A DNA stretch of 20,000 nt from Elsinoe ampelina (taxonomy: Eukaryota), in NCBI GenBank assembly GCA_010093995.1, contig ML992505.1, forward strand, positions 587,056-607,055. The letters run 5' to 3'. How positions within the stretch are numbered: position 1 is the stretch's first letter; the number at the start of each line of letters is the position of its first letter. The translations under genes were made by a program, and so were the position numbers. Positions 894 to 18,782 of the stretch are shown here, piece by piece. Under the pieces are notes generated by a model. That model searched no databases, had not been told where the DNA came from, and saw only the letters and a program-made list of their open reading frames with translations.

Positions 894-1036
894 TATAAAG
901 TAGTAGATAGAGTAGTAAACTATCTGGTGGTAATAGTGTAAAGTAGCTTAAGAAGCAAAAGAAGGAGGACTTCCGTATTAGGAAACGCGGCCCGGCAATT
1001 TTGGCACCTGTGATTGGCCACCTTCTCGCTTAGCCA

Positions 1037-1082
1037 GGGGGTCTCAAAGGCTGGGGGGGTCTCAAAGGGGGGGGACAGACGT
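1037..1082. repeat. Probable terminal inverted repeat of the pogo element, with internal 14-bp direct repeats
   Basis: GGGGGTCTCAAAGG occurs at 1037-1050 and 1055-1068, next to the ACGT|TA terminus. The partner TIR is outside the window. Confidence 0.7.
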
Positions 1083-1679
1083 TATCATGCTTTCTATCAT
1101 CACAGCATGGCATTCTGGGCAGACGCCATGCCTACTGCAAGGAAGCATCACACGACAGTTCGAAGCGTGTTTCATATCGCTCTGAGCCCTGTCTAGCCGC
1201 CGTCACTGCAGGATCCAAGATCGACGAAATATGTCTTGGTGCGAAGCAATGCGAGGGGACAGCGAGGGAACGAACCAGTGGCGTCTCTGCCCGCACCTCT
1301 TTTTGGCTCCTTTTGGGTAGGTCTGAAGCTTCTTGTCGCGCTTCGATACGCTTGATTTCACCACGACCGCGTGGCCTTCCTCTCCAGGCTAGAGATCTGT
1401 GAAGACAGAGGTGATCCGACCTGATCGACGGCTGGCGCCCGTATCTTCCCCAGAAACCTGGCGCCTGCAAAAGTTTGGTCGCAAGGACATGCTATAACTG
1501 GGCTACCACTCCATGGAAACCGGCTACACTATCGAAGCGCTCTGACTACAGCCTCGTATTTCACCACTCGAAATTTGAGCTTCAGCGATCGGACGCATCT
1601 AGCTGTCTAACAGCTCCCTTGCCCTTTCACCTGTCATCCGTCACTTGTCACAGCCGTTTCACCTCCGCATCCATACAAC

Positions 1680-2450
1680 ATGTTCCGCAACGGAGTCCTG
1701 GCAGCTTCACTGCTGTCGATATCAAGCGCTTCGCTTTTGGAAGTAAGCCGAATATCTCAATCTTCCCGTGTCTCATCACTGACAATTGCAAAGAGACAGA
1801 CAGACATTTCACAGCAAGGATGCAACGGCATCATCGGCGACTACTACGGAACACTCTACTGCTGTCCTGGTGTAGCCTACAACGATACAGATGAATACCC
1901 ATCAGGCTCTGGTTTCTGCTGTGTCGGTGCAGTCTTTCCCATCCCTGGCGCCGGCCGCTTCTCCGACTGCTTCCCGAACTGCGGACAGACCTCATCCTTG
2001 AGCGAGGTCAACATTCTGCCCATCACCGAGTCACAGAGCTGTCGCACTACGATCATGTTCACGGACAGCGAGTACACGAGCAAGGCAAATGCATATGGGG
2101 CGGCTATCACAACGCCGTTGACCATCAATACCGAGAGCGCGGTCTTCACCCGGCCGGTCCAGCCCACCACTGCGGAAGACCCTACTTCATCTATGACCCA
2201 GTCTGGAGGGTCCTCGACACCGTCGAGCACCTCCGCTGGCAGCAGCGGTGCCTCCTCCGGCGCCTCTTCTTCAGCTTCCTCCGCAACAACGGGCTTCTCT
2301 GGGGCTGCCATTACCGGGTCGACGTCGAATACCGCAGCCGGTGCATCAACCTCGACGAGCCCCAGCTCTGCTCTCGGTGCTAGGATCACGAGTGGACCCA
2401 TGGCCGGTGCACTCATGGTAGCGGGAGGAATCTTGGCCGCAGCATTGTGA
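1680..2450 (+). CDS. Secreted, probably GPI-anchored cell-surface protein with an 8-Cys N-terminal domain and a Ser/Thr-rich stalk
   Basis: 256-aa ORF. Signal peptide MFRNGVLAASLLSISSA; Cys pattern C-CC-CC-C-C-C; S/T/G/A-rich linker; hydrophobic C-terminus (MAGALMVAGGILAAAL) preceded by small residues. Probable in-frame intron at 1743-1793/1799. Confidence 0.85.
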   Translation: MFRNGVLAASLLSISSASLLEVSRISQSSRVSSLTIAKRQTDISQQGCNGIIGDYYGTLYCCPGVAYNDTDEYPSGSGFCCVGAVFPIPGAGRFSDCFPNCGQTSSLSEVNILPITESQSCRTTIMFTDSEYTSKANAYGAAITTPLTINTESAVFTRPVQPTTAEDPTSSMTQSGGSSTPSSTSAGSSGASSGASSSASSATTGFSGAAITGSTSNTAAGASTSTSPSSALGARITSGPMAGALMVAGGILAAAL

Positions 2451-2583
2451 TCAGCAAATGCCAGAAGAGAATGATAAGAAGGACATGCATCACGCCGTCA
2501 CGAAATCCAAATTGAGATAGTTCATCTAATGTACATTATTCTGATATACACCCACACCCGACCCCTGACCTCACTCTCCCTTC

Positions 2584-3831
2584 TCACGTCCCCTTCACCC
2601 CCTCCTCCGCCTCCGCCGCAACAGCCACCACCTCCATCTCACTCAACCACCCCCTCACACTCTCCATGACCCTCTCCAACCCCTCCCCACCCGCAACCAC
2701 ATCATCCAAATCATGCACACTAACCCCACTCCTATGATCCGTCACCCTCTGCTGACCCCAATTATACGTCCTCACCTTGTGCTCCCTCCCCAACCTCCCC
2801 ACCGCCACCGTGCCCCTGCGCAGACTCAACATCTCCTTCTCCTTCTCCTCGCGCCTCATCTGCGCCACCTTGGCCCTGAGCAACCGCCACGCCTTTTCTT
2901 TATTCTTGTGCTGGCTGCGCTGGTCCTGGATCGCGACCACCGTGTTGGTGGGCACGTGCGTGAGGCGGACGGCGGAGTTGGTCGTGTTGACGTGCTGGCC
3001 CCCTGCGCCCCGCGATTTCATAATGTCCACGCGGACGTCTTTTTCCTCCACGGCGGCGTCTTCGAGGTCGGATAGGTCGGGGGAGTCGGGGAAGGAGGGG
3101 AGGACCATGACGGCGGCCGAGGAGGTGTGCGTGCGTCCTTTGCTTTCTGTGGCCGGGACGCGTTGGACGCGGTGCACCCCGCTTTCGCACCGCAGGAGGC
3201 CGTAGGATGAGGGGGAGAGCACTTCGATGATGCATTCTTGGAGAGGTGCGGAGGAGCCGTTGGGGTCCGAGGGCCCGAGGGCGTCTTCGTATTTGAGGAT
3301 GGAGTGGGGGAGGGAGCGCGAGGTGAGGTAAGAGGTGTACATGCGGACGAGGTCGGCGGCGAAGAGGGCGGCTTCGGAGCCGCCGGCGCCAGGGCGGATT
3401 TCGATCAGGCAGGGGAGGTGGGCGAAGGGGTGTGGCGGGACGAGGGAGTGGCGGAGGGATTGGGCGGCGGTTTGCAGGGTGGTGGTGGCGGACGGGAGCT
3501 CTTCTTCGGCGAGGGTGCGGAGGTCGGGGTCGGTGGTGGGGTCGGAGAGGAGTGATCGGAGCTCGCTCAGGGAAGTGTGGGCGGTCTCATAGGAAGTGAG
3601 GGCCGTGGTGGTGCGACTTAGCTGACCGAGCTTTCGCGCATTGGCTTGCGAGAAGCTGTCGGCGAGGGAGGCCGAGAGGGTGGCATGTTCCTGTGCTATG
3701 GCGCGAGCTCGGGACAGGAGCAACGGGCTGACTTCATCGCTGGATATAGTGGACTGGAAGCGGACCTGTCGCCAGACCGGCTGACGAGCTCGGAGGATGT
3801 AATGGCGGGCGTGCCATGTCGTCCTTCTCAT
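2584..3831 (-). CDS. MRF1: Mitochondrial peptide chain release factor 1 (RF1/PrfA family)
   Basis: Motifs IEIRPGAGGSEAALFA, ESGVHRVQRVPATESKGRTHTS (PxT codon-recognition motif), GAGGQHVNTTNSAVR (GGQ) and KVRTYNW..RVTDHR. First ATG at 3831 gives an Arg-rich, acid-free presequence (MRRTTWHARHYILRARQPVWRQVRFQS). 415 aa, no intron needed. Confidence 0.95.
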   Translation of the reverse strand: MRRTTWHARHYILRARQPVWRQVRFQSTISSDEVSPLLLSRARAIAQEHATLSASLADSFSQANARKLGQLSRTTTALTSYETAHTSLSELRSLLSDPTTDPDLRTLAEEELPSATTTLQTAAQSLRHSLVPPHPFAHLPCLIEIRPGAGGSEAALFAADLVRMYTSYLTSRSLPHSILKYEDALGPSDPNGSSAPLQECIIEVLSPSSYGLLRCESGVHRVQRVPATESKGRTHTSSAAVMVLPSFPDSPDLSDLEDAAVEEKDVRVDIMKSRGAGGQHVNTTNSAVRLTHVPTNTVVAIQDQRSQHKNKEKAWRLLRAKVAQMRREEKEKEMLSLRRGTVAVGRLGREHKVRTYNWGQQRVTDHRSGVSVHDLDDVVAGGEGLERVMESVRGWLSEMEVVAVAAEAEEGVKGT

Positions 3832-4757
3832 GCTAGATTGAACTTGGACTTGGAAGTATTTTGATGCAACAGTAGAAATGCAAGCAAAGCTCCACAGCCC
3901 TATATGGCTTGGCAAACAGATGGCTTTCGAGCGGATCTGTTTCTTTGCGCAGTTCCCATTCCTACCCTCTGAGCTCTTTCTCCAGAACCTTTCGGTCGTT
4001 TAGAATGAATCTATGAAATGTGACATGCAGTCTATGAAGATCCGTCTTACTAGCATGTACCTACCACATGTGGGTGCACATCTCGAATAGATAATCAGGC
4101 TCGACGACGATGCTGGCATTCTCCTGCGATATATGCCATGCTCGGCGCTTATGGAGATGGACTCGGCCTGATCTTTCTATGATATGATGGGATGCGATGT
4201 CCTGGACCTCAGATCACACTTTGGTCACGAGCAGCCTGAAGAGGATATGAAGTTGCTCGGGCGGATCGAGAATAAGATCTTGCAGACTGAACAGTATATG
4301 GCCGACGCTTCTATAGTACCTCGACGATAATTTAGCTTCATCTTCGTATGATCTTATTCTCTCAATCGAAATACCCATGTACACTGTATTGGTCATCCTG
4401 TATTCAACATTGCCGTGCACATTGACCCGTACTTGGCAGGTCATCCGCCAGAGCAATAGCGGCTAGAACATCTTTGTACCATAGAGTATACCTGATCGTA
4501 TGGTCATTGCCACTGAGCTTGCAAGTTGTCGTTGTGGTTGATTGGACAAAGAGGAAAGGCACCCGGGAGGGAAACCCCCGACATGTCTTGGCAGGGGGCG
4601 AGCAAATCCCCTGACCTGAGCAAAGACGACGATATATCTCTACTTTGAACATTCTTGCGTTGTTTTTGGATCCTATCTGTTGTTTATCTCATTTGTTGAC
4701 TTGTGTAGGGGAGGAAAAAGGATTAATTACTGCCTGAACCACCAAAATGAGGTAGAT

Positions 4758-5431: not shown

Positions 5432-5893
5432 TATTATAAACTAGTAGAACAGCTAGAGCGTAGGGACGTTAGGACTAATTAAACTGCTAAGGTTATTACG
5501 TGACCTAGCCCGACGTTCACTCGATTCTCTATCTTCTCTAGTAGCTCTACTCTAGAGACTATAGAGCGTATAGGTTACTAGTAGATATATACTCTATATT
5601 GCCCCTAACTCTCGCTACGGAGTATATAGAGTATATAGAGCATATAGTAAAGAATATATATATATAGGAATAGTTCTTACCTTATATAAGTACTATAGTT
5701 AACCTCGTCTAGATAGTAAACACTAGTATTACTAAGGCTAGCCTTTATAATACTATCTAATTGTACTTTATTATCTATAAGATATATCTTCTTTAACTCT
5801 TACCTTAGTACTATACTACTATAGAAGTAGAACTACCTCGCTCTTAGCTTAGCTTAGACTACTAGTATAGGCTATATTAGATAGTTCGTAACA
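5432..5893 (+). repeat. 5' LTR of the outer Gypsy (462 bp)
   Basis: Starts TATTATAAA (RIP of TGT...) and ends CGTAACA. Colinear with 18147-18522; about 28 mismatches by hand count, all transitions. Confidence 0.92.
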
Positions 5894-8699: not shown

Positions 8700-8969
8700 N
8701 NNNNNNNNNNNNNNNNNNNNNNNNNNNNNNNNNNNNNNNNNNNNNNNNNNNNNNNNNNNNNNNNNNNNNNNNNNNNNNNNNNNNNNNNNNNNNNNNNNNN
8801 NNNNNNNNNNNNNNNNNNNNNNNNNNNNNNNNNNNNNNNNNNNNNNNNNNNNNNNNNNNNNNNNNNNNNNNNNNNNNNNNNNNNNNNNNNNNNNNNNNNN
8901 NNNNNNNNNNNNNNNNNNNNNNNNNNNNNNNNNNNNNNNNNNNNNNNNNNNNNNNNNNNNNNNNNNNNN
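8700..8969. other. Assembly gap (270 N) inside the outer Gypsy RT
   Basis: Run of N. Confidence 1.
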
Positions 8970-9280
8970 TATAACCTTCTAAGAGTTAATTAATAACACT
9001 CTATAAGAATACCTTAATAACTTTGTCTTAGTATATTTAGATAATATTATTATCTTCTTAAAGATATATAATAAACATGTAGGATATATTTATAAGGTAC
9101 TATAGAAACTAAAAGAAAAAGACTTACTAGTAAAGCTCTTTAAGTATAAGTTTTATAAATATAAGATACAATTTCTAAGCTATATTATATCTACTAATAG
9201 TATTAGACCCGATTCGAAGAAGATTAAGTTAGTAAATAACTAGCTAGAACCTACTATAGTTAAGGAGGTTTAAGTACTAC

Positions 9281-9482
9281 TAATACGAGATGAATTACGA
9301 ACTAGATTTAGTTAGTATCTAGGTCGGAGAGGTCACGTGATCTCGGCTCTCAGCCCGGGCTTCTAGCCGCTCCGCCCTCGATATCTTATATACTTTATAG
9401 ACTAGCTTTCTTCTTCTTCTTCTAACTCTTAATATCTTAACGAATAGACGTAATTAACCTTCTATCTTGCTAGTTGTAATTA
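9281..9482 (+). repeat. 5' LTR of the inner Gypsy (202 bp)
   Basis: Ungapped match to 15297-15498 with 16 mismatches, all C/T or G/A. Confidence 0.96.
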
Positions 9483-9634
9483 CTATATTAAGAGTTTAAA
9501 GCACCTACGATTAAGCGATAGAGCTATTAAACTATCTAGCTCTTCTACTACTTACGTAATTCTAATAACTACCATTTACGAAGAATTAAAGAATTAAAGA
9601 AGAAGCTATTACGACCGCAGTTCCCGCGCACACT

Positions 9635-11164
9635 ATAATAGATCCTCGCTGCCGCTGCGTAGGTCGATACTATAAATATAAGAAGAAGGTAATAAGTCGA
9701 GTTATAGATAACTCTTAAAGAAAGTAGGCCTTTAGCTAAATTTTTTAGATATCTCCTTTGTCACGCGTTGACTTTTATACCACGAATTCACAACTAACCT
9801 CGCTAAGTATAGCTTGCCCTAACCCTAGCGACGACTGCTATGTAAGTAATATTCCTCTACCTCCTACTAACAACAACGACGAACTAGTCTAGTTAGCTTA
9901 CTACGATCTTATTTGCCTTAGCGACGACGACCTTAAGAAGAGGCTATAAGAGATAGACGATATAACTACTCTACGTAAGGCCTTTGCCTTTATTAAGTCC
10001 ACCTATAACAAGTGGGTTATTGTACGTAACTTAGCATATTCTAACGCTCTTAATTTGCGCTACTAGCTCGATAACGCTATAGCCGATCTAGATACATCTA
10101 ATAGTACTACTAACAATCTTACTACCTAAGCTATACGCTACCTTACTAACATTAATAAGCTTAAGGCCGAGCTAGCCTAGCTAAAGGCCGAAGTAGAGCG
10201 CGCTACACTAACCTCTTCTACTAGAGGCGCTACTCTGTCGGAAAAGATCCTAGACCTAGCTATATTTAGTAGCGGCACCCTAGAGCAGTTTAAGGTCTTT
10301 AAGCACTAGATAAAGAACAAGATACGTGCTAACGCCGACCGATTCCCTACCGAGGCTACCTAGTTCGTATATCTCTACTCGCGCCTCTCTAGAGAAGTAT
10401 ACACCCTTATTATAGACTCTGCTAGCAATAACACTATCGACGTTAGTAAAGGCTTAGCTCTCTTAGCCTAGCGCTTCGAAGACTCTAACTGTAAGGCTAT
10501 AGCACGCGCTTAGTTCGCTAGCCTATTCTAGTGTAATGCCTCTTTTAATTTCTTTATTAGCGAGTTTAATAAGTACGCTCTCCGCGCTAAGATTGCTAAG
10601 GACAAGTAGCTCTACTAGCTACGCTAGAAGATATCTAACGAGTTGCGCGTTGCCCTTGTCAATTTCGATATAGACGACCTTATCTCCTTTATCGCTAAGG
10701 CTCGTGCTACCGATTATAATATCTAGTAGAGTAACCTTATCTCTAGGCGTACTTAGGCCCTCTGCTCTACGCTAGCTATAAACCGCACTACTAGTGCCTC
10801 GACTCGAGTAGCTTATTCTATATCTGCTCCTACTACTCTCTGCCCTATAACCGAAGGAGCTCTATAGCCTTTTCGCCCCCCCTAGTCACTTATCTACTTC
10901 GTATGCGGCAGGCCTAGCTATATCTCTACTAAGTGCATAGCTAGCGCCTCCGAGAAAGCTACCTATGCTACTACTCGCCCTGCTCGTACTATTAGTACTA
11001 TAGAGGCTACTAAGATTTAACACCTTTAGGATCGACTTACTAAATTAGGTACACACGCTCTATCCTAGCCTTAGTTCGACATTAGTTTAGATCTAGTTTA
11101 GTCCTAGTTTAACCCCGAGATAGATTACGAGTTAGCCGAACTATCTAGCTAGGGAAACAACTAG
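9635..11164 (+). pseudogene. gag of the inner Gypsy
   Basis: De-RIP reading LSEKIPDPAMFSG (10235-10273) and CCHC knuckle CF.CGRPGHISTKC (10895-10936). Ends G GGA AAC AAC TAG (11152-11164). Start is approximate. Confidence 0.85.
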
Positions 11165-14100
11165 CTAGAGGACAAGTTCTATCCTCTAGCGGAAGAAGAG
11201 TAATTCGAGATAGATCCGGAGGAGTTTAATTACTAAATAGCGTCGTTAGCCACTACACTCTCGCTATTATAACTCCTATTACTATACACGACCTATACAA
11301 CCGCAACTGTACTATTACGCTCTAAGTCTTTATCGACACTAGCGCGCTTATTAGCGCCGTAGCTAACTATAAGGTTCTTAATAAGCTTAAGAGTTTTAGT
11401 TGCCCTATAGTATTAGCTAACTCTATCTAGCTTAACGCCTATAATAGTGTTCTAACGGAGTAAGTCACTTATTAGATCTCTCTTACTACTACTGTCTCTA
11501 GCAAGTTTAATAGTCTTATAACTTTCCGTATTATAGATATCGGCTATTTCGATATTATCCTCGGGCTTAGCTAGCTTAAGGCTAATAGAGCTAATATCGA
11601 CTGCGAGCTTAGCTAAGTTACTTATAAAGAAGAGTTCTCCCCGGCTGTTGTTAAGTAGTAGCAGCTATAGCTAATTAGAGGGCTAGGATCTAGATCTAAG
11701 CCCGGCTCGGATCTAGGAGCTCGACTAGTTTAGATCTAGTTCGGCTGTAGTCTAGCTTGTAGACTATATTCTAGTTTAGCTTCCGAGCTAGAATCTGCCT
11801 GTCTATCTTAGCTGCCGGCACTTAGGCCGAATTTCAAGCTAGATAAGAAGGAGTTTAAGCTAGTTTCCTATAGCTCCTAGCTAATGCATAAGTTCTCTTA
11901 CGTACCTGCCTATATAAGTAACGCTAAACCTCGAAAGGACTATACAATAGCCTTTATCGGCGCCGTAGCCTTCGCCTTACAAGCTAAGCATTACGATTGT
12001 AAAGTGTTTACTATCTCTATAAAGAATATCGAGGACTACTGCCGTCTAGCTTCCGAACTAGAGCTAGACTCTATAGAGGTTCTACTACCGGAGCTACGTA
12101 AATTCGCTAATGTCTTCTCTAAGGAGCAATCTAACACTCTTCTACTACACCGGCCGGAGTTCGATAACTGTATTATTCTAAAGGATAGCGCTAAACTTCC
12201 GCGCACCGAGCCTTTACGCTACCTATTACTAGAGGAGCTCGATATAGTAGAATAGTTTATCTAAGAGCACCTTGATAAGGGGTTCGTTACTCTAAGCTCT
12301 ATAAGCTATTTATCTTCTATCTTCTTTGTCCGGAAGCTAAATAGAGAACTTTGCCTCTACATCGATTACTACGGCCTAAACGAGGTTACTAAGCGAGATG
12401 TCTACCCGCTGCTACTTATTAAAGAGACGCTTACTCGCGTCAGTAAGGCTAAGTAGTTCAGTAAGATCGACATCTATTAAGCCTTTTACTGCCTCTATAA
12501 CTCTATCGACTATAAAGATCTTACTACGTTCTCTATATATATAAGTAACTTTAAATAGCTAGTAATGCCTTTCGGCCTTACTAACGCCCTAGCTATATAG
12601 TAGAGGTTTATAAATCACAACTTCATCGATATACTAGAGCGCTTTATATTAATCTACCTTAACGATATTCTTATCTATACCGACGGCACTTGCCGAGAGC
12701 ACGCCGAGCACATTAAGCTAGTACTCTAACAACTCTACGAATTAGGCCTTAATGCCGACATTAAGAAGAGCAAGTTCTACCTAACAGAAGTAAAGTACCT
12801 CGGCATTATCGTTAGCCGAGATAGAATCTAGATAGACCCTAAGAAGGTAGAAGCTATTAAAGCCTAGAAGTAGCTAGCCCCTAGTAATACTACTTAAGTT
12901 AGGAGCTTTATTAGCTTCTACAGCTATTATCGCCGCTTTATTAAAGGATTTAGTACTATCGCTAAGCCGCTAAACGACCTACTTAAGAAGGACGCTGCAC
13001 TCTAGAGCGACAAGTGCACTGCTGCTTTTAACTGCATAAAGTATGCTATAACTAGTGCTCCGATTCTCGCGCACTTCGACTGCTCGAAGTAGATAGTGCT
13101 CGAAACTAACGCTTCGGACACTACTACTGCTAGTATTCTATCCTAGTACGACAATTCTAATGTACTTCGCCCTGTTACCTTCTTTAGTAAATCTATAAGC
13201 GAAGCCGAACGCAACTATACTATCTATAACAAGGAGCTACTAGCTATCGTCTAAGTCTTCGAGGAATAGGCCCCTAAGCTTATAAGTGCTTAGCCTAATA
13301 AGACTATTTACGTCCTTACTGACTATTAGTCTCTAATACACTTTATAAGGACTTAGAAGCTATTACGCCGCTAAGTACGCTAGGCTCTCTATCTAGCACA
13401 GTTTAACTTTAAGATAATATATCGACCCGGAGCTACTAATGGCAAAGCTAACGCACTTATAAGAAGGAATAGTAACGTACTACGCTCGAAGGAAGACCCT
13501 AATCTACGCTAAACCCTACTACCGTACAGAGTCCTAGACTAGCGTATCGTCGACGAATTAGAACTAGGTCGTATCCGAGGTGGATTACTAGCTTAAGCCG
13601 AACTAAGAATAAGTAAGCTTAGTTCAACTGCCGAACTAGAATCTAATTCGCGATCTAGTTTAGCACGTAGTTTACTACCTAGTTCGACATCCATTTCGGC
13701 TGCCGGATTAGATAACTATCTCGCCTCTATCTCGACCTTAAAGGACGAACTACCTTCTCCCCTTTTTAACGAGGTAGCTAAAGCTAACCTAAGAGACCTA
13801 GAGTTCGAGTTAGCTCGTGGTATTCACCGTATAATAGGAGCCTTCCCTAAGCAGAAATAGTTGCTATTAACTAATGTTATAATCGACAACGGAATACTTT
13901 AGGTCGCTAGTCGACTATTCGTGCTACTATCGATAGCTACGAAGGTTATTTAAGAAGTTTACACCTTAAAGAACTACGTACACGCTAGAGCCGCTAAAAC
14001 CGTAGCTATAATTAAATCCACCTTCTATATCCTAGGATACGACACTAATGTCAAAAGGTTCGTCGCTAACTACTATAACTGTAAGCGTTCTAAAGCTCGC

Positions 14101-15260
14101 TATAGCCTCCTAGCCGGCCTTCTCTCGCTACTCCCGATACTAGAAAAGCCTTAGTAGCATATTACGATAGACTTCGTTACTAGTTTACCGCTTATAGACG
14201 GCTATAATACCGTCCTCTACGTAGTCGACTATCTATCTAAAGAGCGCTACCTTATCCCCTACTTCTCTAGAGACGAAGGTACCTTAGCGTATAAGACAGC
14301 TAAGTTGTTATTCTTATACGTATAGAAGCTTTATAGTCTACCTAACACTATTACTTCGGATCGAGGCCTCTAATTCGTAAGCGACGTATAGAAGAGACTC
14401 TACTAGATTCTAAAGGTTATAGCTAAACTGTCTACTGCTATACACCCCTAGATAGACGGCTAGTTAGAGGTTTTTAATTGCGATTTTAAGCGAGTTATCT
14501 GCACCTATAGCTATCGATATGTAAACTAGCTACTGATCCTTCCGATGGCCGAGTTCTCTACTAACGTTAACTCTTCGGAGAGCACTAAACTATTACTATT
14601 CTAAGTTATAAAGGGATACAACTCGAGGCTAAGCTTCTAGCCTCCCGTAGAGCCTATATTAACACGAGCTAAGCTAAACAAAGCTAGTATTCGCGCACTA
14701 GCTAAGTAGATAGAGGACGCTCGTAAGATTACTAAGGTAAACCTCGTAAAGGCTTAATTACGTATAGTTAAACAAGTAAACAAGCGGCGTCTTTCTACGG
14801 AGTTTAAAGCTAGTAATAGAGTATAGTTATCGACAAAGAACTTCTAGCTTTAAGGGAACCCTAAGCTACTACTAAAGAGAGTTAGACCTTATAAGATTCT
14901 AGAGAAGCGCTCGGCGCTCTTATATAAGCTAGAGCTCCCTTAGGCACTATAACGTATCTACCCTGTGTTCTACGCCGACCTACTTACTAAACACCCTAAT
15001 AACCCCTTACTAGGACAAGCCTTCGAGAAGCCTCTACTAGTAGCTATTAAAGGTAAGAAGAAGTATAAGGTTAATAATATCGTAGACATAAGAAAGCTAC
15101 GGAATAGACTAGTTACTCGAGTAAGCTAGAAAGGTTATCTAGAAGATCTAACATAGTACCTAATCGACAATCTAAAAGGAGTAGCTAACGTACTACGTAA
15201 CTATCTAGACTCCTATATAGATAAACCTCGTCCGAGGTGAATCGACTAACCTATATAATA
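11152..15260 (+). pseudogene. pol of the inner Gypsy (protease, RT, RNase H, integrase, chromodomain)
   Basis: FIDTGA (11329), MPFGLTNAP (12565), YLDDILIY (12655), VLETDASD (13096), WQHITMDFVTGLP (14152), SDRG (14356), HPQTDGQSE (14443), and chromodomain EYEVDDIVD..WKGY..DPTWYP (15061-15162). All in one frame; the listed ORF 11884-12255 is a stop-free piece of it. Confidence 0.93.
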
Positions 15261-15296
15261 GCGTTTAAGGGCAAACGCAATTAAGAGAGAGAGTAG

Positions 15297-15498
15297 TAAT
15301 ACGAGATAGATTACGAACTGGATTTAGTTAGTATCTAGGTCGGAGAGGTTATATAATCTCGGCTCTCGGCCCGGGCTTCCGGCCGCTCTACCCTCGATAT
15401 CTTATGTACTTTATAGACTAGCTTTCTTCTTCTTCTTCTAACTCTTAATATCTTAACGAATAGACGTAATTAACCTTCTATCTTACTAGTCGTGATTA
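15297..15498 (+). repeat. 3' LTR of the inner Gypsy (202 bp)
   Basis: Direct repeat of 9281-9482, preceded by the PPT and followed by the TSD. Confidence 0.96.
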
Positions 15499-17523
15499 AC
15501 TACTAGGATTCTTTAACTACTATTATAAGTTTATTAAAGGATTTTCTAAGGTAGCTACGCTAATATCTAACCTTACGAAGAAAGAAACTAGCTTTATCTT
15601 TAACAAAAAGTGTAGGTAGGCCTTTAAGGAGCTAAAGCTTAGGCTTATAATAGTACCTGTCCTAGCACTCTTTAACCTAGACTAGTAAGCGCTACTAGAA
15701 ACGGATACCTTAGACTTTATAATAGAAGTATATCTAGTATAGAAGGATATAGAAGAACAATGCTACCTAATTATATACTACTTACGAAAAATAACTAGAC
15801 TTAAACTTAACTACGATATATATAACAAGAAGTTACTTATAATTATAGAAGTATTCTATAAGTAAAGAGTATACCTAGAAGAAATAACCTTACCTATATA
15901 AGTCTATACCGATTATAAAAACCTATTATATTAGATAATAACTAAGGTTCTTAATAGATAATAAGTTCGATAGTTAGAAACACTTATAAGCTATAACTTT
16001 TAGATCTACTATGTTAAGGGATTAGAGAATAATAGAGTAGATACTCTTAGCCGACAACTAAATTACTTAAAGAATATAACAATAATAGAGGCCTCTATAC
16101 TAAAGTAGTAAGATAGCGCTCTAGTCTATAAGTACCTAAAGGTAAAGTAGTTATATAGCCTTACCTAGGAGCTTACGTAAGAATAGAAGAAAGAAGTTAT
16201 TTAAATATACTATAACGACCTAATAGTAGGGCATAGTAGGATTAATAAGACTATTAAACTTATTATATAAAACTACCTATAGAAAGGACTTTAAAACGAT
16301 ATTAAGACGTATATTACTATATGCAATACATGCTATAAGTCTAAGCACTTATAACACAAGCTATATAGGCTATTATAACTCTTACTACTACTAGACAAAC
16401 TATAGTAATTAGTTATAATAGACTTTATAGAACCTCTACTACTATTAGAAGAACCTCTTACAGGTATAAAGTATAATAGTATTCTAGTTCTAGTAGATAG
16501 GTTTATAAAATATTACTACTTTGTACTATATAAGACAATAGTAACTACCGAGGATATAGCCTTTACCTTTCTCTAAATAATTGTTTTATAACATAAAGTA
16601 CTATAAGACCTAATAACTAATAGAGATAAGCTATTTATGTTATAATTCTAGTAATTATTTATAGACCTACTAGGAGTTAAATATAAGCTATTAATCTTCT
16701 TTTATCTATAAATAGATAGATAAACTAAATAGGTAAATTAAGTACTAGAGTAGTACCTACGCTACTACCTAAACTATAAGTAAGACTTATAAGTAATACT
16801 ATTACTGCTCGCGGAGCTTACTATTAATAATAGAAAGTTAGCTAATAGAATTTTACTATTTTACGTAAACTATAGAATATACCTAGATCTATACTATAAC
16901 ATACTCGGAATTAAGCTAATATCTAAGAATACTAATATACTAGTAGCTAACATTAAGAAACTATATAACTAGCTATACTATAATATAGTATTTATATTAT
17001 AAAGAATAGTAGAGTTTACTAACTAGAAGAGAATTACAGGACTAATTCTATAGAAGGGAGAGAAAGTTTACCTCCTTAGTAGAAATATTAAAACGAAATA
17101 ACTAAGTAAGAAACTTAACTACACTAAACTAGGACTCTTTAAGATCCTAGAAAAGAAAAATAAGAACATATATAAACTAGAACTACTAAGACATATAAGG
17201 ATCTATTTAGTCTTTTATATATTACTACTAGAGAAAGTACTACGGAATACTATACCTAGACCTATTAAACTAGATAAAGAAACATAGGAGCTATAGTATA
17301 AGATTAAAAGGGTTTTATATTATAAATCTATAAGGGGAAAGCGTTACTATCTTATCTACTAGAAAGAATATTAGTATAGTAAGGCAATATAGGAACTAGA
17401 GAAATACCTTACCTCGTAAGTAATTCTAGATTACTAGACTAAAAACCTATTCTAAGTAAACTAACTAGGTAGGCCTAATACTACTAATACTAAATAAAAA
17501 TAAGAATGCCTAAGGAAGACTAC

Positions 17524-18072
17524 TTAGCTAATAGAAGTACTCTAATCGTTACTAAATAAGAAACTCTAATTAGAGTTAGGTATAAATAATTATTAGTTCT
17601 ATAGTAGGACAGGATCTACCGACGATAGTATTTCCTCCTACTTTAAGATTTAAATATAAGTCTCCTCTAGAGAGATTACTTTCTCTGCTTTATCTTTTAA
17701 CTTTTATATCTCTTCGTATAGGCGAAGCTTATTGCCTATAGCTCTTTAATAAGCCTCTTTTACCTTTTTATAAGCTTCTTTAGCTTTCTTTCTAGCGGCT
17801 TTAGCTATAACTAATTCCTTTCGTAAATAAATATACTTAGACTAGAGACACTACTATTCTAATTTTATTACCTAAATATTATAACTTAAGTAGTTACTCG
17901 TAATATACTAGCTATAAATACCTAACTAAATATAGACTTTATAGTCTAGCTCTTTTAACTTATAATAAGAGTAAGCTTATAGCATGTTAGTTCTAAATAA
18001 CTTAATAAACTTTAAGAGATTCTTTCGTGTAGATATACTAGATTTACTATACCTTCGATAACTAGGAGACAT
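17524..18072 (-). pseudogene. Antisense accessory ORF of the outer Gypsy: Zn(II)2Cys6-like domain, coiled coil and acidic tail (RIP-inactivated)
   Basis: Six TAY codons (RIP of TGY) at C-x2-C-x6-C-x8-C-x2-C-x7-C spacing (17973 to 17881), followed in frame by an E/K/R/A-rich helical stretch. Both ends are uncertain. Confidence 0.75.
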
Positions 18073-18146
18073 ATTTAGTATATAGCGTAAAAGGATAAGA
18101 AAAAATACTTACTCGTTAGAATAACTTAATTAAAAGAGGAAAGTAA

Positions 18147-18522
18147 TATTACAAACTAGTAGGATAGCTAGAGTATAGAGACGTTAGAACTAATTAAACT
18201 ACTAAGGTTATTACGTAACTTAGCCTAATATTTACTCGATTCTCTATCTTCTCTAGTAGCTCTACTCTAGAGACTATAGAGCGTATAGGTTACTAGTAGA
18301 CATGTACTCTATATTACTCTTAACTCTCGCTATAGAGTATATAGAGCATATAGAGTATATAGTAAAGAATATATATATATAGGAATAGTTCTTACCTTAT
18401 ATAAGTACTATAGTTAACCTTGTCTAGATAGTAAATACTAGTATTACTAAGGCTAGCCTTTATAATACTATCTAATTGTACTTTATTATCTATAAGATAT
18501 ACCTTCTCTAACTCTTACCTTA
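18147..18522 (+). repeat. 3' LTR of the outer Gypsy, cut off by the assembly gap
   Basis: Colinear with 5432-5807 and follows the PPT. Confidence 0.92.
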
Positions 18523-18782
18523 NNNNNNNNNNNNNNNNNNNNNNNNNNNNNNNNNNNNNNNNNNNNNNNNNNNNNNNNNNNNNNNNNNNNNNNNNNNNNN
18601 NNNNNNNNNNNNNNNNNNNNNNNNNNNNNNNNNNNNNNNNNNNNNNNNNNNNNNNNNNNNNNNNNNNNNNNNNNNNNNNNNNNNNNNNNNNNNNNNNNNN
18701 NNNNNNNNNNNNNNNNNNNNNNNNNNNNNNNNNNNNNNNNNNNNNNNNNNNNNNNNNNNNNNNNNNNNNNNNNNNNNNNNNN
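18523..18782. other. Assembly gap (260 N) covering the outer LTR end and the Gypsy/Copia junction
   Basis: Run of N. Confidence 1.

Follow-up and report, generated by a model that had tools for sequence, protein, structure and literature searches.

A RIP-inactivated antisense gene with a six-cysteine, zinc-cluster-like remnant between the chromodomain and 3′ LTR of a Ty3/gypsy element in Elsinoe ampelina

LTR retrotransposons are usually regarded as encoding gag and pol only. Among animal retroviruses, HBZ of HTLV-1 is a minus-strand bZIP protein of about 200 residues that starts in the 3′ LTR and combines an activation region with a dimerising DNA-binding part. The described systems closest to the locus studied here are the antisense open reading frames between pol and the 3′ LTR (aORF-3R) of maize Grande, rice RIRE2 and Silene Retand, and brtn, the antisense gene of Boty in Botrytis and Sclerotinia (PMC7264820, PMC8365987, PMC4227169). 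As far as the available text of these reports goes, our locus resembles them in place, orientation and size class, and in a level of conservation near that of the element's own proteins (PMC7264820, PMC8365987, PMC4227169). It differs in that a zinc cluster and a coiled-coil-like helix can be named here, whereas the same text reports no function or domain for the plant genes or for brtn. The comparison with brtn is one of descriptions, and the two families may or may not be the same. In the literature covered, which lay mostly outside subscription journals and included the accessible part of PMC3248453, we met no account of an antisense gene with a zinc cluster in a fungal LTR element.

The window, by which we mean the whole 20,000-nt stretch analysed, is heavily RIP-mutated fungal DNA with the exception of a GC-rich island at 1000–4500. 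Outside the island, the RIP index TpA/ApT is 1.6–2.3 across window segments and (CpA+TpG)/(ApC+GpT) is 0.10–0.34, save for a value of 0.62 in the island-bordering segment 4500–5431. The island, un-RIPed beside RIPed repeats, contains on the minus strand (2584–3999) an open 471-codon frame with the PCRF and RF-1 domains of a peptide chain release factor. Two plus-strand Ty3/gypsy elements are nested in the remainder. Comparison of the LTR pair places the 5′ LTR of the outer element at 5432–5807, extending at least this far, and its 3′ LTR at 18147–18522; the two copies agree over 300 nt at 91% and identity continues to 5807 and 18522, the latter meeting a run of N at 18523 that hides the true end. 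Runs of N occupy 8700–8969 (270 bases, in the outer RT) and 18523–18782 (260 bases), the second of which conceals any target-site duplication together with the end of the outer 3′ LTR.

The 3′ part of the outer pol (15499–17485, plus strand, its end approximate) carries Pfam RNase H, integrase zinc and SH3_Tf2-1 domains, and matches the pol of a relative (L001, described below) by tblastn over 15503–17251 (E 2e-66). A chromodomain remnant at 17294–17431 aligns to the Pfam-defined chromodomain of a second relative's pol (L002; E 3e-05), and a polypurine run, AAAAGAGGAAAG, lies at 18132–18143 (plus strand), directly before the 3′ LTR. These two landmarks show that the pol-to-polypurine spacer of about 700 bp is real. 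The inner element (9278–15498, plus strand) is inserted in the outer RT, with LTRs at 9278–9482 and 15294–15498 that are 92% identical, and the Pfam domains of its pol reach its own 3′ LTR without a comparable spacer. The contrast between the two elements drawn by the initial annotation, a spacer between chromodomain and polypurine tract in the outer element and almost none in the inner, therefore holds. The antisense family described below has no tblastn match elsewhere in the window, the inner element included. CTACTA-like words at 9275–9282 and 15500–15505 stand on both sides of the inner element, whose boundaries are approximate, and may represent its target-site duplication.

On the minus strand of the spacer, a RIP-inactivated accessory gene of about 206 codons reads from an ATG at 18072 to 17455, the low end being approximate, with 19 in-frame stops and zero frameshifts. 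Its six TAY codons at 17971–17973, 17962–17964, 17941–17943, 17914–17916, 17905–17907 and 17881–17883 give the spacing Y-x2-Y-x6-Y-x8-Y-x2-Y-x7-Y; both the frame and these positions are as first annotated. The six codons delimit the remnant of a six-Cys zinc cluster (17881–17973, minus strand), in which, by the family alignment, all six Cys codons are now TAY. Next comes the remnant of a long helical, coiled-coil-like region (17617–17859, minus strand), which aligns to helix 83–181 of the structural model of the family member P0003, and finally a poorly preserved acidic/aromatic C-terminal tail (17455–17616, minus strand, from the family alignment) that probably borders on the end of pol or overlaps it.

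The frame was searched with X at its stops and Tyr kept as Tyr, with no recoding of TAY to Cys and no de-RIPed consensus. In this form, phmmer against 1.84 billion representative sequences returned P0001 (199 aa) at E 1.7e-10 over 143 residues, and P0002 (208 aa) at E 3.7e-04; the RIPed frame gave no match in a word-based protein search, and Pfam on all six X-read frames of 17401–18146 gave nothing useful. Placing X at the stops was sufficient to recover intact relatives of a RIPed frame, and the gene can be read through heavy RIP when TAY is taken to have been TGY and the stops to have been codons for Trp, Arg or Gln, a reading that proved correct here. A profile built from four intact members collected 34 proteins at E ≤ 0.001, and the window frame is collinear with the family alignment from Met1 through the tail. 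Precomputed Pfam domains are absent from all 34, and nearly all of them bear either no name or the label “hypothetical”, so that the gene is unannotated in every member seen. Antisense cargo of this sort has not gone wholly unremarked: brtn and the aORF-3R genes are already in print, as the available text of two reports makes clear (PMC7264820, PMC8365987). The ESM Atlas returned unnamed Ascomycota clusters only, with Zn_clus and DUF3716 labels absent, and the viral contigs scanned contained no relative of the family. Two names within the family call for comment: P0031 is called multidrug efflux pump subunit AcrA (membrane-fusion protein) at its source, probably a coiled-coil artefact, and P0022 is listed in UniRef as a Zn(2)-C6 fungal-type domain protein, though it is without Cys 4–6 in the alignment.

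Intact members of the family are about 190–215 codons long. A basic segment (KRK...RR) and a helix precede the Cys domain, in which the spacing is C-x2-C-x6-C-x8-C-x2-C-x6-8-C with one invariant His; the consensus around Cys2–Cys4 reads C-R-R-x-x-x-E-C-K-V-H-V-R-S-G-x-C. The six Cys are invariant in 30 of 30 intact members, and five of the six are at least 90% conserved over all 35 rows of the alignment. After the Cys domain there is a single helix, some 100 residues long and showing heptad periodicity, and the C-terminus bears a conserved acidic/aromatic motif, LALSPxTWS..G.PDDFW....PWV. The order of cluster, helix and acidic/aromatic tail proposed from the window alone is thus found in the family alignment and the AlphaFold2 (AF2) model, and agrees with the heptad periodicity.

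The tyrosine spacing by itself is no evidence of a gene, because a loose form of the pattern (Y-x2-Y-x6-Y-x5-12-Y-x2-Y-x6-8-Y) occurs six times in the six frames of the whole window, this one included; two of the five other occurrences are the two LTR copies. Its chance expectation is about 0.15–0.2 per 650-bp spacer, and the 40-residue stretch holds nine Tyr, six of which had been chosen in the initial annotation. As a signal, then, the spacing alone is within chance, and it rises above chance only once the Cys columns of homologues are aligned to it: the six chosen Tyr all fall on near-invariant Cys columns and the other three on none, one of these three occupying the column of the invariant His, which is TAT in the window (17932–17934, CAT to TAT). 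This coincidence is independent of the HMMER search, since Cys/Tyr pairs score poorly and the match was found nonetheless. Un-RIPed relatives likewise provide Cys at the six codons within open, intact frames. The alignment, with family Cys at all six places, supports the original suggestion that the TAY codons are RIP-mutated TGY, and the same Cys-to-Tyr changes occur in two RIPed siblings (L004 and L005) next to an intact copy (L003) from the same collection, with Tyr at Cys 2, 5 and 6 in L004 and at Cys 1 and 2 in L005.

The decay of the remainder of the frame follows the same course. Taking as conserved the 57 columns with at least 80% agreement in the family, the window is identical at 26, reachable by C>T or G>A changes only at 24, and otherwise different at 7. 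RIP-compatible columns therefore number 50 of 57, where shuffled codons gave a mean of 10.0 (SD 2.7, maximum 20, 2000 shuffles). A chance arrangement of Tyr codons in an AT-rich, RIPed spacer with no gene behind it, an explanation with the recurrence of the loose pattern in its favour, is refuted by this agreement together with the homology to P0001, and we give it negligible weight. Judged from its sequence, the window copy is dead, RIP-mutated and no longer functional. RIPed copies of the gene at L004 282–896 and L005 10001–10555, both in other fungi, also have stops in place of Trp or Gln.

Two DNA runs from the window's organism, X1 and X2, contain the outer element as a highly repeated sequence, with matches to 4019 and 2743 contig pieces, respectively, at a threshold of at least 80%; two further runs presumed to be RNA, X3 and X4, gave no match. 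Nearly every difference from the window is a transition (in X1, 204 of 209, counted as kinds by place). The differing places listed are 40 of 230, and the middle bases of the six Cys codons (17972, 17963, 17942, 17915, 17906 and 17882) lie outside those 40. Six of the listed differences strike conserved columns, and four of these restore the family residue (E144, A104, R75 and T69); of the other two, one is a residue that the siblings have lost and one matches neither.

A scan of metagenome contigs yielded five loci, L001–L005, that place the gene in its element. The open reading frame (ORF) is convergent with the 3′ end of pol in four of the five (L001, L002, L004 and L005) and in the window; the fifth, L003, is 1092 nt long and too short to include pol. 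The pol opposite the ORF has RT, RNase H, integrase, SH3 and Chromo domains, as in a Ty3/gypsy chromovirus. In L001, the intact ORF (3034–3630) meets an 859-residue pol on the opposite strand that ends within the 3′ end of the ORF (3449–3633), an overlap of about 185 nt, and on the far side of the ORF an LTR-sized gap is followed by gag and protease. The same L001 ORF matches the window by tblastn at 18042–17632 (E 2.7e-08). The ORF of L002 runs from 9950 to 10588 and the pol stop codon is at 10588–10590, such that the stop codons of both genes overlap; beyond the element on its LTR side come host genes (WD40, dynamin). L004 and L005 have the same gene order by tblastn, and L005 comprises a whole 6.7-kb element with LTRs at 9456 and 15840. 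The order in L001 (1–6093) is circularly permuted, from the 3′ part of pol through the antisense ORF, one LTR-sized gap, gag and protease to the start of RT, and reflects either tandem elements with a common LTR or assembly across copies. L005 sits in a 683-kb contig and adjoins a histidine kinase gene and a HORMA gene.

In the features by which aORF-3R genes are recognised, the ORF agrees with them: it lies on the opposite strand between pol and the 3′ LTR in the window, L001, L002, L004 and L005, and its conservation is like that of pol. The pols of these elements are only 32–43% identical, yet the place and orientation of the ORF are constant. Comparison of L002 with L003 over 207 codons gave a pN of 0.152 and a pS of 0.729, a dN/dS of about 0.06 and hence below 1, with the Cys domain as the most constrained part (pN 0.072 in the same pair). 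Between L001 and L002, where pS is saturated, pN was 0.397 for the ORF and 0.394 for pol. These substitution patterns indicate that the antisense gene is under purifying selection. The initial annotation was thus right to regard the ORF as a gene of the element itself: in intact elements it stands antisense, with the chromodomain on one side and the 3′ LTR on the other. A lineage of ascomycete Ty3/gypsy chromoviruses carries this conserved accessory gene in antisense orientation, after the chromodomain end of pol and before the polypurine tract with its 3′ LTR. Two family members, P0022 and P0028, come from annotated Chaetothyriales genomes as ordinary hypothetical proteins, as might be expected of captured host cargo without a role in the element, a transduplicated host gene retained by chance. 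We consider this origin very improbable, given the constant position and orientation in four of four informative loci and in the window despite the divergence of the pols, and an amino-acid divergence of the ORF that equals that of pol. In addition to gag and pol, this is a third gene, one that is conserved, selected and, by prediction, structured.

The identity of the Cys domain is less clear-cut. Gal4-type Zn2Cys6 clusters have the spacing formula C-x2-C-x6-C-x5-12-C-x2-C-x6-8-C, typically with basic DNA-contact residues between Cys2 and Cys3, a Lys before the third Cys and a Pro before the fourth. The family spacing fits this formula, and the family has an Arg after Cys2 but Glu, Val or Asp before Cys3, and a loop before Cys4 without Pro. 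Zn_clus (PF00172, gathering score 21 bits) is the commonest weak Pfam match, reaching E ≤ 1 in 16 of 35 members; its cut-off is passed by none of the 35, the best scores being 16.9 bits (P0022) and 16.1 bits (P0010). The proposed Gal4-type label thus has the spacing in its favour, and membership of Zn_clus is not supported by the scores (16.9 against 21 bits, 0 of 35). When PDB sequences were searched with a profile, the Cys domain matched Leu3 (E 0.56) and Lac9 (E 0.92). DUF3716 (PF12511, gathering score 22 bits) matches fewer members at E ≤ 1 (12 of 35) with scores that exceed those of Zn_clus: P0006 stands above the cut-off at 22.9 bits, the only one of 35 to do so, and P0002, P0003, P0005, P0007, P0008 and P0020 score 15.3–19.5 bits over profile positions 2–59 of 59. 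These sub-threshold Zn_clus and partial DUF3716 scores place the domain between the two families rather than making it a proven Gal4-type cluster.

Gal4-type clusters bind two zinc ions and contact DNA as dimers, and their fold comprises two short helices, each opening with a CxxC motif, that pack about the metal. The AF2 model of P0003, built with 30 aligned members (pLDDT 83.4), has a helix at 24–38, short helices at 47–52 and 66–71 on the two CxxC motifs, and a helix at 83–181 with a pLDDT of 98; the domain alone, folded from 3 sequences, reached a pLDDT of 59.3 and was set aside. Among the 26 Foldseek matches to the PDB that were listed, none of them at E ≤ 0.001, 18 are Zn2Cys6 DNA-binding domains, including Put3, Pho7, Hap1, Leu3, Ppr1, Gal4 and AlcR. 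The predicted cluster superposes on Ppr1 and Leu3 at about 2 Å, in a fold that the Cys spacing alone could have led AF2 to draw. Our model is therefore of a six-Cys domain with Zn2Cys6 spacing and a predicted Zn2Cys6-like fold. Compared with Gal4, Ppr1, Leu3, Put3 and Hap1, the family shares the six-Cys spacing and the order of cluster, helix and acidic tail, and differs in its sub-threshold Zn_clus scores, its invariant His and the residues round the third and fourth Cys, as well as in being encoded by a retrotransposon, with about 200 residues and without the middle homology region.

If the kinship with DUF3716 were the decisive one, the same gene could encode a DUF3716-type DNA binder with a role other than transcription, acting at repeats or DNA ends (telomere-like or heterochromatic) and steering integration or protecting cDNA alongside the chromodomain. 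DUF3716 is the top-scoring Pfam family, spans profile positions 3–59 of 59 and has one member above its cut-off. Moreover, the available text of one report describes two DUF3716 genes, REP9-1 and REP9-2, on a Class II transposon of Zymoseptoria tritici (PMC8232023), and the domain thus recurs on mobile elements. Like our family, the REP9 proteins are fungal and transposon-borne (PMC8232023); they differ in belonging to a DNA transposon, and the long helix and tail of our family, one of whose 35 members passes the cut-off, lie outside DUF3716. We regard such a role as unlikely: six of the seven DUF3716 matches are under the cut-off, the acidic/aromatic tail and the Gal4-like order of parts suit an activator better, and nothing in these analyses links the family to telomeres or targeting.

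The properties of the long helix bear on whether the product pairs. Its hydrophobic residues recur with a period of 3.5 residues (power 0.43, against 0.11 or less elsewhere), most strongly at 83–110 and 118–180, and hydrophobic a/d positions are few in its charged, Ala-rich middle (about 104–131). From this composition, the long helix may be a single stable helix instead of a zipper. A complex prediction with two copies and four zinc ions scored 0.01 against a mark of 0.32 in a run without controls, a value that speaks neither for nor against pairing. With its length of about 100 residues and its wealth of E, R and A, the helix could serve as a spacer or scaffold, which would suit a product whose zinc domain binds protein or RNA in place of DNA and acts as an adaptor or structural component, whether in particle assembly, RNA handling or the blocking of silencing proteins. 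The DNA-contact residues that are usual in Gal4-type clusters appear not to be conserved in the family. Furthermore, the plant aORF-3R genes are without an assigned function in the accessible text (PMC7264820). Ranked by rmsd and coverage, the nearest of the structures listed as matching the Cys domain are nonetheless DNA-binding clusters, and the basic N-terminal segment resembles a nuclear signal in its sequence; on these grounds we think a protein- or RNA-binding product quite improbable.

On balance we favour, as a probable reading, a conserved antisense gene, dead from RIP in this copy, whose product would be a small dimeric nuclear zinc-cluster DNA binder that acts on its own LTR or chromatin. 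In this model, the Cys domain would adopt a Zn2Cys6-like fold around two zinc ions, and two chains would pair through the long helix. The polypurine run lies 60 nt from the antisense ATG in the window, and in the window as in L001, L002 and L003 the complement of the polypurine tract is found 30–90 nt upstream of this start codon. Because the ATG is only 30–90 nt from the LTR edge, we infer that an antisense promoter must lie in the LTR; the outer 3′ LTR is its presumed site in the window, and the antisense transcript would begin inside it. The protein would then act on the LTR or chromatin of its element as a transactivator or an anti-silencing factor, with the acidic/aromatic tail recruiting host machinery.

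A narrower and more doubtful proposal is that this fungal chromovirus lineage encodes its own Gal4-like transcription factor, a dimeric two-zinc protein that would be expressed antisense from a promoter within the 3′ LTR, bind the LTR of the element, and activate the element or shield it from silencing; both the Gal4-type label and the regulator role are hypothetical here. Were it correct, a fungal retrotransposon would have in this gene an equivalent of the accessory regulators of retroviruses. The likeness to HBZ would be one of outline only, by analogy, as HBZ is an animal retrovirus protein with no sequence relation to this family. An element that brings its own DNA-binding regulator would bear on escape from silencing and on the rewiring of nearby host genes: with a promoter, and perhaps a binding site, in every LTR, each insertion would put nearby host genes under the factor. 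Between the polypurine-tract complement and the ATG, the inverted repeat CTTGCG-TCCT-CGCAAG occurs in L002 (about 9867–9887) and L003 (about 176–196), and alike in L004; none was seen in L001. It could be a candidate binding site or a 5′-leader RNA hairpin.
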